From a virus (lineage: Duplodnaviria; Caudoviricetes), in the IMG/VR virus record IMGVR_UViG_3300012953_000083, positions 1-36,696 of that record: a stretch of DNA of 36,696 bases; one strand, 5' to 3'. The translations under genes were made by a program, and so were the position numbers. The number at the start of each line of letters is the position of its first letter. The stretch's first letter is position 1. This document shows positions 13,133 to 36,415 of this stretch, one piece after another. Below the pieces are notes generated by a model. That model was not told the DNA's origin. It made no database searches and was given only the letters and a program-made list of their open reading frames with translations.

Positions 13133-13837
13133 ATGATATTTACAATGGAAAATATAAAAATGATTAATTTGGATAATGAATTTCAATTAACAGTTTTATC
13201 AGCAAAAAATGGACAACTTATAAGCAGACACGAACTTGATGAACAACCATCTTTTGACAAAATAGAATACCTTGATGATTACAAAATAAATAAATCATTA
13301 ACAAATTATTTATTTATGGAAGGTAAAGTTAAAGTTTCTTATGAATGGGAAGCAGATGAAATAGCAGAAACAGATGTAGATAAAATTGAAGAATTATATG
13401 CAGATAATCCGGAAGATTCTTATAAAAACACAACTAGAACAGATAATTTTTATGGCTATGAAATAGATATGAAAGGGTATGTAAAAGAATGGCGAGAAAG
13501 GTCAACAAATTATGAGTTAGCAACAAATAAAGCAAGTATCGAATCAATGCAAGATGACACCATTATTATTTGTTGTTTGCAAAATGACTATGGTTTTAAA
13601 TTTTACAATGTTGATCTGCAACCAAATGAAACAATAGAAACTGAAAAACTTGGGAACATTAATTATTTATTAGTCGGCAACAAATGTGAAATTACAGTTC
13701 CTTCCCCAGATGTAGTCGGAGAAGAATTTAAATATGACTTTAATCAGTATGACTGTAAAAAATTATCTAGCAAAAAATGTTTTATAAAAAATGTTAGCGA
13801 CAAAGTTTGTCGTGTTGTGATGATATGCAAATCATAA
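13133..13837 (+). CDS. Hypothetical acidic protein (accessory)
   Basis: 234-aa ORF with GAGG SD. Confidence 0.7.
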   Translation: MIFTMENIKMINLDNEFQLTVLSAKNGQLISRHELDEQPSFDKIEYLDDYKINKSLTNYLFMEGKVKVSYEWEADEIAETDVDKIEELYADNPEDSYKNTTRTDNFYGYEIDMKGYVKEWRERSTNYELATNKASIESMQDDTIIICCLQNDYGFKFYNVDLQPNETIETEKLGNINYLLVGNKCEITVPSPDVVGEEFKYDFNQYDCKKLSSKKCFIKNVSDKVCRVVMICKS

Positions 13838-14580
13838 AAGCTTTAAAGTTTGTTAGAGCTTATACTTTTTCAAAAAGTTATATATCAGCAGATTTAAATA
13901 TTATTATGGATATGGTTAATAGTTTAGATAATAATTGTGATAAAAAATTAAAAAAAAAATTTAATCAAAATCCATATTCAAAACTTTTCTATAAACAAGA
14001 AAACCTAAAAGACACTGTTTTAAAATCAAGATACAAAAAAGGCACATTAGGAGCAGAGTTAAAAACATTTTGGAAAAATAATTCAGATGATTTATTTCAA
14101 AAAAATTACAAAATTTCACAAACCAAAGGCAAAAAAAATATTAAATATGTGCAAGGTTTTATTAACGAACATGACCTTATTCATTGTGTAAACAATCTTG
14201 ACTCTACTCCTTTAGCAGAAATATCTGTTTTAGCATTTACATTAGGTAAAGAGTTTCGTTGGAGTTTCTTTTTTATTTTACTATCTAGTTGGCTTATGGC
14301 ATTTAAAAACTCTTTTGGTAAAAAAAAAATACAAGGCAGTCTTTTTTTTAGAATAAAATATACCCCAGTTATTAGTGTTTTTAGATTAATAAAAGAAGGT
14401 TATAAAAACGGCAGAAAAACAAAATGGTTTTTAACTGTTGATTGGCATAGCTATTTAAGAACACCAATAGAAGAAGTTAGAAAAGAATTGAACATTAAAA
14501 AGTTTCCAGTTTGGGAAGAAATAAAACCCTTATGGTATGAGCTTTTAACTCATTATAAGAAAACAAACATTAAGGTATAA
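13825..14580 (+). CDS. Coq4-like metal-binding protein
   Basis: GTLG, HDLIH-x11-E motif, and C-terminal EGY..G..W..P.EEVRKELNI match the Coq4 family; ATG 13825 preferred to TTG 13807. Confidence 0.75.
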   Translation: MQIIKALKFVRAYTFSKSYISADLNIIMDMVNSLDNNCDKKLKKKFNQNPYSKLFYKQENLKDTVLKSRYKKGTLGAELKTFWKNNSDDLFQKNYKISQTKGKKNIKYVQGFINEHDLIHCVNNLDSTPLAEISVLAFTLGKEFRWSFFFILLSSWLMAFKNSFGKKKIQGSLFFRIKYTPVISVFRLIKEGYKNGRKTKWFLTVDWHSYLRTPIEEVRKELNIKKFPVWEEIKPLWYELLTHYKKTNIKV

Positions 14581-22261: not shown

Positions 22262-22711
22262 ATGGGTAGATCGACCGAAAGGTTAGGAAGAAGTGGGGAG
22301 TTTGCAGTTGCTAGTCATTTAGCATTATTTTCAGATACGGTAACAATAGTTCCTCATGGTTCTCATGCTGATATTCTTTTTGAGCATGAAGATAAAATTT
22401 TAAAATGTCAGGTTAAAACGAAAAGCAACGAAAGGCTGTATGAAAAAAAAGGCGTTGCTAGAAGGATTGGTTGGCAGTTTGATCTTAGACGAGGGAGGCA
22501 TACAAAAGACCGTTATTACGGAGAGAACGGAGAAAATAGTATAGACATCTATGCTCTCTATTGTATGCCATTAAATATAATTACTTATATTCCCTCTAAT
22601 TATCCTGCTACTAAAATAACTTTATCTACTGAGCAGTTAAAAAATACTGACCCCTATGAATCGCTAATTAAATCAATTAATGATTTGAGCATCAATAACT
22701 TTAGCAGCTAA
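22262..22711 (+). CDS. PD-(D/E)XK endonuclease
   Basis: G..GE..VA, ADILF and CQVKT catalytic-type motifs. Confidence 0.75.
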   Translation: MGRSTERLGRSGEFAVASHLALFSDTVTIVPHGSHADILFEHEDKILKCQVKTKSNERLYEKKGVARRIGWQFDLRRGRHTKDRYYGENGENSIDIYALYCMPLNIITYIPSNYPATKITLSTEQLKNTDPYESLIKSINDLSINNFSS

Positions 22712-23818
22712 ATTAACATTACCTGAAGATATTTGCGGAGTAACTTCACCGTATCTTTGCATTGAAGCTAAACTTTTATGACCCAACAAAGCTCCAACTT
22801 GTCTTGTTGAAATGTTAGCTGATATACACATAGTAGCGAAGCTGTGCCTTAGATCATGTAACCTTATATCAGGGCAGTTACATTTATTAGTTATTTTTCT
22901 CCATAATTTATAAGGAGTTACTATTCCAGTAATAGTTTTTGTTTTAGGATTAATAGTAGATAATTTATTAATAACCTGCATAGCCGGTTCATTTAAATAA
23001 ATAACCCTTTCTTCTCCGGTTTTTTGTCCAGTCTTGTGATGCTCAACTGGAATAATAATTTTGTTATCTTTAATCCATTCCCAACGAGCTTTAGCTATCT
23101 CACCTTTTCTTGCTCCAGTTAATATAAGCAGCCATATAAACCCAACAGTTCTGTATCTTTCTGGATTATTTAATTCAATACTATTAAGCTCATTAAATAT
23201 TTTTGCTTTTTCTAAATCTGTATATGACCTTTTAATTTTAATATCAGGGTGAGCTTTTATCTTAGAGCCTACATTAAAATCAATTCCGTAAGTCTCTTCA
23301 TCTACAGCAAAATTTAACGAAGCAATAATCATCTTTAAAGTTTTGTTGGCTACGCTCTTACTGTGTTTTGTAGCTTTCTTAAAAACTTCTTTTATATTTT
23401 TTCTTTTAAGATCACTAACTACAATATTACCTGCAAGTGACTTAACCCAATTATTATAATTTCTTTGACAATCTTCTATGTGTTTTGTTTTTACATTTCT
23501 TGATTTGCAATCATCAATATAGTCATTAAATAATTGTTGATAAGTAACAGATATATTTTCAGCAGGGTCCGGAATAATTCCTTCTTGTATATCAATTAAT
23601 GTTTCGTACATTTTGATTGCTCTATTTCTAATAGAAGTAATGCCTTCATCTTTGTATTTAAGAGGTATGGTTTTAGTTTTTCTTTTGCCGTTTTCTGACC
23701 ACAACAGCATATAACTAATTACACCGTTACGATTTCTAATTTTTAATTTACTAAAAGATTTATCTGTTTTAATTTTTTCTTTGGTAGTAAATTGGTAGTT
23801 GTTTTTATTAGTATTCAT
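22673..23818 (-). CDS. int: Tyrosine integrase
   Basis: LLILTGARKGEI (R), HKTG (K), LHDLRHSFAT (HxxR), LLGH, QRY (Y); GAGGAG SD. Confidence 0.96.
   Translation of the reverse strand: MNTNKNNYQFTTKEKIKTDKSFSKLKIRNRNGVISYMLLWSENGKRKTKTIPLKYKDEGITSIRNRAIKMYETLIDIQEGIIPDPAENISVTYQQLFNDYIDDCKSRNVKTKHIEDCQRNYNNWVKSLAGNIVVSDLKRKNIKEVFKKATKHSKSVANKTLKMIIASLNFAVDEETYGIDFNVGSKIKAHPDIKIKRSYTDLEKAKIFNELNSIELNNPERYRTVGFIWLLILTGARKGEIAKARWEWIKDNKIIIPVEHHKTGQKTGEERVIYLNEPAMQVINKLSTINPKTKTITGIVTPYKLWRKITNKCNCPDIRLHDLRHSFATMCISANISTRQVGALLGHKSLASMQRYGEVTPQISSGNVNLAAKVIDAQIIN
23781..23805. repeat. Arm-type-like tandem repeat, copy 1
   Basis: TTGGTAGTAAATTGGTAGTTGTTTT; 23/25 identical to 24016-24040. Confidence 0.7.
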
Positions 23819-24041: not shown

Positions 24042-24117
24042 TGGTGAGTCCTCAGAGGCTCGAACTCTGGACCCTACCCTTAAAAGGGGTATGCTCTACC
24101 AACTGAGCTAAGGACTC
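24042..24117 (-). tRNA. tRNA-Lys(UUU)
   Basis: 76-nt cloverleaf: GAGTCCT/AGGACTC acceptor, GCTC/GAGC D stem, TACCC-CT TTT AA-GGGTA anticodon arm, CAGAG-TTCGAGC-CTCTG T arm, encoded ACCA. Confidence 0.97.
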
Positions 24118-32951: not shown

Positions 32952-33109
32952 TCCTTAACCTCAACTTCATCTGTTTCACCTTCTAACTCCCAATTTAACT
33001 CTTCATTTTCAGCTATTTTTTCAGCCTCCTCTAAAGTGTAAGCATCAATAAAACAATACTCTTCACGAGAATATTCTCTAGTCGCTATAAATCTTTTTTT
33101 CTTAATCAT
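32948..33109 (-). CDS. Small acidic protein (53 aa)
   Basis: GAGGTG SD, TAATG-coupled; A.TLEEAEKIA motif. Confidence 0.6.
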   Translation of the reverse strand: MIKKKRFIATREYSREEYCFIDAYTLEEAEKIAENEELNWELEGETDEVEVKE

Positions 33110-33375: not shown

Positions 33376-33719
33376 TACGCCACCTCTTTATTTTGTTTTA
33401 AGTCTTCCAGTTCAAAACATTTTAAAAAATCATCTAACAGCTCAACCAGTTCATCTTTGTCTGATACTGATAATTTTTTTATGTCTCCTTCATAACCAAT
33501 AAACTCTGGCACATCTTCTCTTGATACCCAGTCAAAAAATTCTCTTGAATATTTAGATGCAAAATCTTTGTCTCTAAAAAATCCTAAAGTGTTTATGTCT
33601 GTTGGATTAAAGTATGTAAACAGCTCCATTTGGTCTGTATGTTTTGCAAAAGAATACTCACAGATCATTTGAATAATTGTAAGTTCCTGCATAGAAAATA
33701 ATCTTTTTCTATCTATCAT
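33375..33719 (-). CDS. Hypothetical early protein
   Basis: AGGAG SD fits ATG 33719 rather than 33734; directly downstream of hammerhead 3. Confidence 0.7.
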   Translation of the reverse strand: MIDRKRLFSMQELTIIQMICEYSFAKHTDQMELFTYFNPTDINTLGFFRDKDFASKYSREFFDWVSREDVPEFIGYEGDIKKLSVSDKDELVELLDDFLKCFELEDLKQNKEVA

Positions 33720-33752
33720 TTTATCTCCTGCCATGTTTCAGGCGTTTAGTTT

Positions 33753-33826
33753 GTCTAAGAACCTGACTAATAATCGAAACTTAAATTAATCAGGTTTTCG
33801 GATATTGAATCCATCTTCAGTTAGAC
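33753..33826 (-). ncRNA. Type I hammerhead ribozyme HH3
   Basis: GUCUAA CUGAAGA U GGAU-UCAAU-AUCC GAAA ACCUGAUUAAU..AUUAGUCAGGU UC^UUAGAC; predicted cut 33759/33758. Confidence 0.88.
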
Positions 33827-34415: not shown

Positions 34416-34464
34416 TTTGTCTCCTCGCTGTTGCGAATTTAGTTAATTAAAATATCTAGGACGG

Positions 34465-34494
34465 ATAGTAGCATATTTTTTTTGGGAGTTGCAA
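34465..34494 (-). promoter_or_regulatory. sigma70-like early promoter with extended -10
   Basis: TTGCAA-18nt-TACTAT with TGn extension; embedded in an imperfect inverted repeat. Confidence 0.7.
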
Positions 34495-34604: not shown

Positions 34605-34786
34605 TATTTCACCCCCTTTGTTTTTTGACACGCTTGAAAAAATTTTCCTGAATCAAATTTATTATTATTTTCACCAAACACCTCGCAAAGATTTCCAATC
34701 AATTTAGTGGTGTCCAGTCCTTCATGCTCGTAACTATGAGCTTCTCTGATCGCTTGAGCGATTAAAATATAATCTTTTCTACTCAC
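34604..34786 (-). CDS. Hypothetical early protein (MSRKDY..IA...FD...F..AC)
   Basis: GGAGG SD, GTGA overlap. Confidence 0.7.
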   Translation of the reverse strand: MSRKDYILIAQAIREAHSYEHEGLDTTKLIGNLCEVFGENNNKFDSGKFFQACQKTKGVK

Positions 34787-34962
34787 GATGCCTCCATTTC
34801 AGATTTAAAAAAGAACATAATTGCTCCGCCTATTTCTCCTTCGTCAGCTCTTAGAGTTTCCTCTATTACATCTTCTGAAAGAGTTGATAAAAAAACCCAG
34901 TTTGTGTGACCGTAGTATTCCAAACATTGAGCATCTATCATTTCCATTTTATTTATAGTCAT
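34783..34962 (-). CDS. Hypothetical early protein (59 aa)
   Basis: Not in ORF track; AGGAG SD in the post-HH2 leader. Confidence 0.65.
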   Translation of the reverse strand: MTINKMEMIDAQCLEYYGHTNWVFLSTLSEDVIEETLRADEGEIGGAIMFFFKSEMEAS

Positions 34963-34996
34963 ATTTTCTCCTGCCTTTCGGCGTTTATTTGTTTAT

Positions 34997-35051
34997 GTCT
35001 ATGACGCTCCTTGCGGAGCGTTTCGGATATTAAATCCATCATCAGATAGAC
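34997..35051 (-). ncRNA. Type I hammerhead ribozyme HH2
   Basis: GUCUAU CUGAUGA U GGAU-UUAAU-AUCC GAAA CGCUCC-GCAA-GGAGCG UC^AUAGAC; predicted cut 35003/35002. Confidence 0.92.
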
Positions 35052-35057
35052 TGATAT

Positions 35058-35960
35058 TTATGCGGCGTTTTTCTTCTCCTCTTTCGCTTGTAGTGATCTT
35101 AAAAAATTGACTGACTTCTGTGCCTTGCTAAACGCTGTTTTAAGAGCGTTTTTGTCTTCCTTGATAACCTTTATCCAGTTATTCAAATATTTGGCGTGAT
35201 CGTCTCTTATGACCTTCTCAATGTTTAATATTTGAGATAAGAAGGCGGAGCCAATTTCAGCTATCAATTCTTCTCTGGCATACCTCTCAGAACCAAACCC
35301 ACCGGAGAGGTCTCTGTCTTCCCTGCTAGGGTGTCCGGTCCAGTGTGTCAGCTCATGCAACAGCGTTGAGTAATATGCGGTGTCAGTGAAAAAGCTATCT
35401 ATTGACGGCATAGTGATCTGATCTGCTGAAGGTCTATAAAAAGCAGCATCTCCGCCAATATGAATTTTTGCCTGTGTATTAGCAATAAATTTCTCAGCGT
35501 TTTTGATAGTCAACTTTTTAAGCTCCGGAGTCATAACCTTTTTAGCTTCTGGTACTTCGTAACCTTCAATTTGCTCAGCATTAAAAACCGTTGAGGTTTT
35601 CTCGAACCAAACAATCGGAGTCCCTCCTCTTGCTTTCAATTCTTCTTGAGCGTCTGTCAAGTTTCTAGTCTTTTCCAGTTGGCTGAAAAATGTGACCGTT
35701 CTACCTTTTGAACCTTTAATAATTTTGTGACCTTTGTCACTCCATTGTTTAAAAGTTCCCCATTCATTTGAGCTGAAACCTGACATTGACAACCAAAATT
35801 GATTCATGCCTTGATATTCCTTCTTAGAAGAAATATTTTTTTGCGGTCCTGCTGTAATCCATTGTTTGGTCCAGTCAGCTCCGGCGGTTTCCATTAACTC
35901 AATGATCTTGTTTTGCATCTCCGCAAAATGTTGATCTTTTTTGTTTACTTTCTTAGTCAT
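35058..35960 (-). CDS. ardC: ArdC-like antirestriction protein (ssDNA-binding N-domain plus zincin-like domain)
   Basis: YQGMN..L, WGTFKQW...G..I.KG.KG, VFNAEQ, AFYRPSAD.I.MP, HELTHWTGH, YAREELIAE. Confidence 0.92.
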   Translation of the reverse strand: MTKKVNKKDQHFAEMQNKIIELMETAGADWTKQWITAGPQKNISSKKEYQGMNQFWLSMSGFSSNEWGTFKQWSDKGHKIIKGSKGRTVTFFSQLEKTRNLTDAQEELKARGGTPIVWFEKTSTVFNAEQIEGYEVPEAKKVMTPELKKLTIKNAEKFIANTQAKIHIGGDAAFYRPSADQITMPSIDSFFTDTAYYSTLLHELTHWTGHPSREDRDLSGGFGSERYAREELIAEIGSAFLSQILNIEKVIRDDHAKYLNNWIKVIKEDKNALKTAFSKAQKSVNFLRSLQAKEEKKNAA

Positions 35961-35990
35961 TTTTTCTCCTGCGTTTAAGCGTTTATTAAT

Positions 35991-36040
35991 GTCTATGACG
36001 CCTCTCGGCGTTTCGCTGATTTACAGCTCTTCAGATAGAC
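35991..36040 (-). ncRNA. Type I hammerhead ribozyme HH1
   Basis: GUCUAU CUGAAGA GCUG-UAAAU-CAGC GAAA CGCC-GAGA-GGCG UC^AUAGAC; canonical core; predicted cut 35997/35996. Confidence 0.95.
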
Positions 36041-36345
36041 TAGAATTGCTGTATTACATATCCTCCGCAATCAGTTTCTAAAACTGTGGTCACATCTTTT
36101 ATGCTCTCCAATGTTGAATAAATTGTGCTTGTTCCATTGATTGAATAATCAGCAATCAATTCATCAACATTTTTATATTCCGCATAATCACAACAAATGG
36201 CAATCACATCTAATTCTAAATTTTCCAATTCAGACAAATGCTCGTACAAAGCTTTCAACCCTTCTCTTGAAAAGTTGTTGGCATATTGTCCTGAGTTTCC
36301 AAATTCATTAATGAATTGATTTTCGTTTAAAGTTTTATAAATCAT
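36040..36345 (-). CDS. First early gene; acidic hypothetical protein
   Basis: FSREGLKALY..L..LELDVIAICCDYAEY; AGGAG SD. Confidence 0.75.
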   Translation of the reverse strand: MIYKTLNENQFINEFGNSGQYANNFSREGLKALYEHLSELENLELDVIAICCDYAEYKNVDELIADYSINGTSTIYSTLESIKDVTTVLETDCGGYVIQQF

Positions 36346-36396
36346 TTTTTTTCTCCTGCCGTTTGGCGTTTGTTAATGTCTATATGTGCATTTAAT

Positions 36397-36415
36397 ATTA
36401 TCTGTCCTAGATAAT
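36397..36415. promoter_or_regulatory. Palindromic operator-like site in the putative early promoter
   Basis: ATTATCT-GTCCT-AGATAAT; 16/19 match to the reverse complement of 34451-34469; minus-strand TTGATT overlaps its edge. Confidence 0.55.

Follow-up and report, generated by a model that had tools for sequence, protein, structure and literature searches.

Hammerhead ribozymes flanking phage genes have been known since 2011, when clustered hammerheads were described around single prophage genes and a role in the processing of single-gene mRNAs was proposed (Perreault 2011, PMC3088659). According to the available text of that work, three arrays gave the expected cleavage products in vitro and one did so in E. 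coli, while circles were raised as a possibility and were not detected (data not shown there). Type I motifs are likewise already known in phage DNA (PMC13725137), and a 2017 review, in the portion available, treats the role of prokaryotic hammerheads as an open question (PMC6155905). In animal retrozymes tandem type I hammerheads give rise to circles (PMC7229834). Listings of the open-access literature showed no paper describing circular mRNAs that a DNA phage makes by means of ribozymes. The locus described here adds to this record a case in which hammerheads bracket ardC.

The window, i.e. the whole stretch of DNA analysed, is a phage record of 36,696 bases with Pfam and PHROG matches to a terminase, an SU10-type portal and capsid, an integrase and a primase-helicase. 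Its capsid relatives all display less than 60% identity and have mixed hosts. A tRNA gene on the minus strand (24045-24117), whose anticodon is UUU according to the Rfam alignment, adjoins the integrase gene (22673-23818), and its 3′ part has no exact match in genome_contigs. Among the tail genes, a 257-aa ORF (13807-14580, plus strand) shows a Coq4-like Pfam match (7.5e-8). The small minus-strand genes at the right end of the record form the block that holds ardC and three hammerheads, designated HH1, HH2 and HH3. From its position and gene content, this block is probably the early region.

Three type I hammerheads and the ardC unit

HH1, HH2 and HH3 occupy positions 35991-36040, 34997-35051 and 33753-33826 of the minus strand, respectively. 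Each of these type I hammerheads displays the CUGANGA and GAAA elements and is cleaved, as predicted, at a UC site; of its three stems, II and III are closed and I is open. Stems I/II/III comprise 6/4/4 bp in HH1, 6/4/6 bp in HH2 and 6/4/11 bp in HH3; the cores are located at 36034, 35045 and 33820 and the cuts are predicted after 35997, 35003 and 33759. All three copies have the core elements C3-A9, G12-A15 and U16-H17, and an extra U follows A9 in HH2 and HH3. A strict structure scan of both strands recovered three complete type I hammerheads in the window and none in each of 100 dinucleotide shuffles. Rfam did not detect HH1-HH3 in the window at E ≤ 1, and eight related loci were also without a match at the gathering score; thus the identification of the hammerheads rests on the consensus and the shuffles. 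Self-cleavage at the three sites, as predicted from the consensus, is likely.

Stem I is formed by GUCUAU/AUAGAC in both HH1 and HH2, and the structure scan confirmed the coordinates and sequences that a sequence-only reading of this DNA had given for the pair. The stem I of HH3 was also confirmed as GUCUAA/UUAGAC, so that in the HH2-HH3 unit the junction pair is a mismatched A.A. The minimum-free-energy fold corresponds to the hammerhead in HH1 and HH3. In the minimum-free-energy fold of HH2, a competing AUCAG/CUGAU hairpin of similar energy, established between the 5′ arm and the ribozyme's own core, takes the place of stem I. The ribozymes overlap the upstream stop codon at HH1 and HH3 and lie 6 nt away from it at HH2. 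At HH1 the stop codon, which overlaps stem I, belongs to the first ORF (36040..36345, minus strand, 101 aa), for which no Pfam or PHROG family was matched, and the ORF upstream of HH3 ends at the UGA of the HH3 core.

The gene bracketed by HH1 and HH2 (35058..35960, minus strand) encodes a 300-aa protein with ArdcN and MPTase-PolyVal domains and an intact HEXXH motif. Its earlier naming as ardC was borne out by Pfam (ArdcN, 1.9e-21; MPTase-PolyVal, 3.7e-47), by PHROG 7245 (2.5e-70) and by a full-length match over both domains to PDB 6I89 (E = 1.7e-38). From this family match a putative anti-restriction role is assigned to the phage ArdC. Double cleavage at the predicted cuts would release a unit of 994 nt (35003..35996, minus strand), and the size and content previously ascribed to it agree with those cuts, since it comprises the leader with its SD, the whole ardC ORF and the 5′ part of HH2. 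The unit is single-copy in the region scanned. An endless ORF on a circle of this unit was ruled out, as a length of 994 nt is not divisible by three and stops are found in all frames.

A leader follows each predicted cut on the minus strand, measuring 36 nt behind HH1 (35961..35996), 40 nt behind HH2 (34963..35002) and 39 nt behind HH3 (33720..33758). All leaders belong to one family (AAACGC..GCAGGAG) of 36-40 nt at the three cuts with the ATG next, and the copy behind HH1 reads AUAGAC..AAACGC..GCAGGAG, the last element holding the SD. The HH2 leader precedes a 59-aa ORF (34783-34962, minus strand) and the HH3 leader precedes the minus-strand ORF starting at 33719. The latter gene and the one starting at 32952 (minus strand) share the same short opening sequence, and the three-gene block that separates them is missing from the relative L014. 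A fourth leader copy (36346..36383, minus strand) begins with AUAGAC, the 3′ arm of stem I, has no hammerhead upstream and precedes the first gene; it may be a site where transcription starts with an end resembling the processed ones, or what is left of a hammerhead that has been deleted. A scan with the leader pattern gave mostly single matches. In two relatives, a type III-like hammerhead variant is positioned ahead of the cluster's first gene (L001:4640-4725 (+) and L506:3890-3960 (+)). The core of this variant measures 8 nt (CUGAAUGA), its GAAA is preceded by two additional A residues, and its stem I covaries between the two loci; in the available text of PMC3088659, an insertion after A6 alone is associated with low activity.

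Two operator-like palindromes with 5-bp spacers were recognised by eye, one in the putative promoter upstream of the cluster (36398..36412) and a second copy (34453-34467) at a putative internal promoter, TTGCAA-18-TACTAT, also found by eye within the HH2-HH3 unit (34453..34494, minus strand). The spacing of the putative internal promoter is the same in L001, and the palindrome at 36398-36412 is exactly inverted relative to the corresponding L001 site. A promoter scan returned 14 sites against 21.4 expected by chance, with neither putative promoter among them. Immediately upstream of the putative internal promoter, L001 also carries an additional type I hammerhead (L001:6620-6685 (+)) whose stem I is different; no start codon lies close behind it and the copy is absent from the window.

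Stem I around ardC homologues and across the family

The ardC loci were sampled from 489 viral and 535 metagenome matches, the best 80 being taken from each set; they were not de-replicated and form 87 clusters among 138 loci. The 90 of these 160 with 800 nt visible on each side were counted and scanned for hammerhead types I-III. Within this best 80 + 80 sample, hammerheads are found on both sides of ardC in 4 loci, only upstream in 3, only downstream in 7 and on neither side in 76. A matched stem I around ardC homologues had been set beforehand as a test of the proposed circular mRNA, and the sample largely went against it: the pairs are mostly unmatched, with a match in one of the four bracketed loci, and 10 of the 90 loci are one-sided. 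The matched locus is L001, the closest relative among the matches listed, whose ArdC is 88% identical. Its upstream hammerhead retains the stem I match although stem II and the leader have changed. The bracketing pair of L004 displays a U.U mismatch at the junction pair, while L027 and L434, of one lineage, combine a type I hammerhead upstream with a type II hammerhead downstream of ardC, which cannot rebuild a ribozyme. In L490 and L500, which are not fully visible, ardC is bracketed with a mismatched stem I.

A pattern blind to stem I hit 131 loci in 4 of the 64 parts of IMG/VR, and the 80 with flanks were analysed. The full three-stem structure was present in 69 of these 80 hits, compared with one hit in 2.16 Mb of shuffles, and extrapolation of this one pattern to IMG/VR gives about 2,600 stored stretches. 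After loci with identical ribozymes were dropped, 54 loci remained, 21 of them with several type I copies. Their 43 neighbouring pairs include 15 with an identical stem I and 26 with full cross-pairing, while 38/54 non-neighbouring pairs and 499/9,118 pairs between loci (5%) cross-pair. In an order-permutation test, 19/31 neighbours cross-paired against 17.5 for permuted orders (P = 0.22); this adjacency test is weak for arrays in which every neighbour has to match, as non-neighbours then match too. Ten of the 21 arrays are fully cross-compatible and eight contain no compatible pair. In a stem-I-anchored set of 79 loci, 11 of 30 neighbours cross-pair. In the stem-I-blind set, cross-pairing is no commoner among neighbours than among non-neighbours. 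An asymmetric G.U tolerance favouring the circle-forming cross was not found (forward versus reverse, 26 versus 24 of 43 and 11 versus 12 of 30).

Identity within genomes reaches 0.79 for stem I, 0.47 for stem II and 0.50 for stem III, as against 0.47, 0.40 and 0.32 between loci. This within-genome uniformity of stem I is the best evidence for the putative circle. In orthologue-like pairs, the change per position is 0.05 for stem I, 0.33 for stem II and 0.23 for stem III (10 non-independent pairs); a larger set of 95 such pairs is dominated by one lineage. By rough arithmetic on the rate ratio, slow evolution of stem I would be enough to give the match within genomes. In 13 related loci GUCUGA is unchanged beside a mismatched GUCUAA. 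Stem I preferences also extend over the whole family, with G at position -6 in 130/144 and A at position -1 in 122/144 copies.

When all hammerhead types were scanned, 32 of 55 independent loci contained a single hammerhead, 14 of these with at least 3 kb visible on both sides. Mixed-type arrays (I/II/III) number six, and in four of them (L216, L246, L175 and L209) type III comes first and type I copies follow. For 90 of 99 unique type I copies, the predicted cut precedes by 12-80 nt (median 26 nt) an ATG with at least 30 open codons, against 14.4 expected in shuffles. What stays constant across the family is the placing of a cut immediately ahead of a gene, and not the enclosure of a gene by a matched pair. 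In genome_contigs hammerheads were found in 36 of 115 loci, many on short metagenome-bin contigs that may be mis-binned phage DNA, and these loci were not taken as evidence on hosts.

Probable linear processing, possible circles and likely gene exchange

The explanation favoured here, with a probability of about 0.7, is processing of the transcript by the ribozymes into linear mRNAs, each with a 5′-OH, a short leader of the standard kind and, behind a hairpin, a 3′ end with a cyclic phosphate. The three hammerheads would cut a phage transcript that spans several genes and is probably early; they would do so during transcription, and each piece would present a 5′-hydroxyl and a standard 36-40-nt leader just before the start codon. 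ardC would be delivered as a single-gene linear mRNA, and the translation of each gene would be independent of its neighbours. Two benefits may be envisaged, namely 5′-OH ends that would be poor substrates for the 5′ sensor of RNase E and a cyclic-phosphate 3′ end that would lie behind the stem III hairpin. RNase E is described as cleaving a 5′-hydroxylated substrate inefficiently, together with much 5′-independent cleavage, and E. coli apparently does not phosphorylate hammerhead-made ends, a point cited as unpublished in the available text of the same paper (PMC4191395). Part of the protection sought may therefore come without a circle. The HH1/HH2 stem I match would, under linear processing, be inherited from a duplicated ribozyme-plus-leader unit with a stem I that is slow to change, and circles would be a by-product, perhaps a small fraction. 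The leader of the first gene, which has no ribozyme here and a type III-like variant at the same place in relatives, was counted for linear processing. The uniformity of stem I within genomes and the match kept in L001 are evidence against it.

A functionally important circular ardC mRNA, closed by self-ligation or by host RtcB and with the matched stem I kept for closure, is considered improbable. The geometry put forward by the sequence-only reading holds on paper, as the ends of the 994-nt unit could rebuild a full type I hammerhead in a forced fold that costs 1.5 kcal/mol, and its match in L001, the status of stem I as the most uniform part within genomes and the circularisation of animal retrozymes all speak for closure. 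The ensemble prediction of end-to-end re-pairing, however, is 0.09 for the 994-nt unit and 0.03 in L001, partly because the 5′ arm of HH2 pairs with its own core after the 3′ product departs. This hairpin could be two-edged in the model, hindering self-ligation and yet shielding a ligated circle from re-cleavage; a circle that rebuilds the ribozyme would otherwise be able to cut itself again. RtcB needs only the end chemistry and joins such ends whatever the stems, so the matched stem I is no evidence for the RtcB route, and the phage record has no RtcB match. In animal retrozymes self-ligation amounts to only 1-3% compared with 30-80% with RtcB, in the part of that study available (PMC7229834). 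The negative result of Perreault 2011 and the bracketed ardC relatives (best 80 + 80), with their single match, the U.U pair of L004 and the mixed types of L027 and L434, also weigh against the circle. Thus the geometry and its retention in L001 stood, whereas a matched pair kept around ardC in most bracketed relatives did not.

The broader proposition is that a DNA phage uses tandem type I hammerheads of its own to produce coding circular mRNAs, ardC included, and that some lineages hold stem I uniform across an array so that every excised gene closes; it is likewise regarded as a long shot. A 9-ribozyme array (L211:4454-8712 (+)) has 8/8 compatible neighbouring pairs while stems II and III differ, with a predicted end re-pairing above 0.5 for 5/8 units, and is a stronger circle candidate than the ardC locus. 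In L211, L549 and L576 the arrays comprise 6-9 type I hammerheads that all use the same 3′ arm but differ in stems II/III, and these three are the best candidates for a test of circularisation. A 5′-terminal snap-back hairpin was rejected as a family-wide block to re-ligation (17/143 against 11.2 expected; mean pairing 0.33 versus 0.32). In L174/L081, L089, L112 and L138 the 5′ arm is repeated directly behind the 3′ arm that the cut would free, so that a lineage-specific 5′-terminal hairpin results.

At the DNA level, homology with relatives breaks in or at the ribozyme-leader repeats: that with L001 begins at 36041, in stem I of HH1, that with L506 ends at 36010, in the HH1 core, and the L014 block ends at 33715, at the HH3 leader. 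The genes flanked by HH1-HH3 vary among relatives: the order of genes D and J in L001 is reversed in L014, and the window lacks J. The repeats are therefore likely to act as exchange points, and recombination there is a likely route of gene swapping between phages. Reducing ribozyme-plus-leader mainly to a repeated DNA module, with genes as exchangeable cassettes and RNA cleavage as a secondary property, would extend these breakpoints and the PeSL precedent of T4-type phages (PMC2839356) to the function of the element. This extension is doubtful, as cores and three stems are kept while stem sequences diverge, in a structure that the search pattern did not require; recombination would favour identical sequence and not structure, and many copies are single. 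Cleavage might instead be regulatory or destabilising, depending on whether the gene upstream is being translated and curtailing the lifetime of early messages or shutting them off. The position of each ribozyme at or over the stop codon of the preceding gene and the competing fold of similar energy in HH2 speak for such a role, but the cut always leaves the downstream SD and start codon intact and a competing-hairpin flank occurs in only 4/99 family members, which makes this role unlikely. Linear processing thus remains the preferred explanation of the locus.

Comparison with described systems

The ardC locus is a compact test case that combines an assayable gene and matched stems with naturally mismatched (L004) and mixed-type (L027) relatives, and therefore allows linear processing to be separated from circularisation. 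It also belongs to a large hammerhead family that escaped Rfam in the loci tested. Were functional circles to be real, the locus would provide an example from nature of a DNA phage mRNA made circular by ribozymes. The presence of a second anti-restriction family beside hammerheads, ardC after ardA, hints at a benefit of processing for genes that are required immediately upon entry, a hint limited by the 76 of 90 ardC relatives fetched (best 80 + 80) that have no nearby hammerhead. The ArdC protein itself resembles the structures in PDB 6I89 and 6SNA in having both domains and the HEXXH motif; here it is phage-encoded and known from sequence.

The PeSLs of T4-type phages are similar to the present repeats in being short repeated expression elements between accessory genes that are associated with module exchange. 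In the available description, a PeSL consists of a promoter and a terminator and gives DNA mini-circles (PMC2839356), whereas the repeat here consists of a ribozyme and a translation leader. Like the ardC locus, retrozymes have a pair of hammerheads of one type, and the ends left by the two cuts could together restore a single ribozyme. They are, as far as the available text describes them, eukaryotic tandem repeats of 170-400 nt (the size being that of animals) with circles shown in vivo (PMC7229834). In contrast, the ardC unit is 994 nt long, protein-coding and single-copy, HH1 and HH2 differ outside stem I and the core, and the compatible pair is not conserved around ardC in relatives (1/4 bracketed loci; best 80 + 80). 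The arrays of Perreault 2011 are alike in placing several hammerheads in the intergenic gaps around single genes or short blocks of varying gene content. From the text available, one of the arrays tested flanks the anti-restriction gene ardA, while the gene bracketed here is ardC, of a different protein family; and, unlike those arrays, all three ribozymes of the present locus are of type I and share a common leader.
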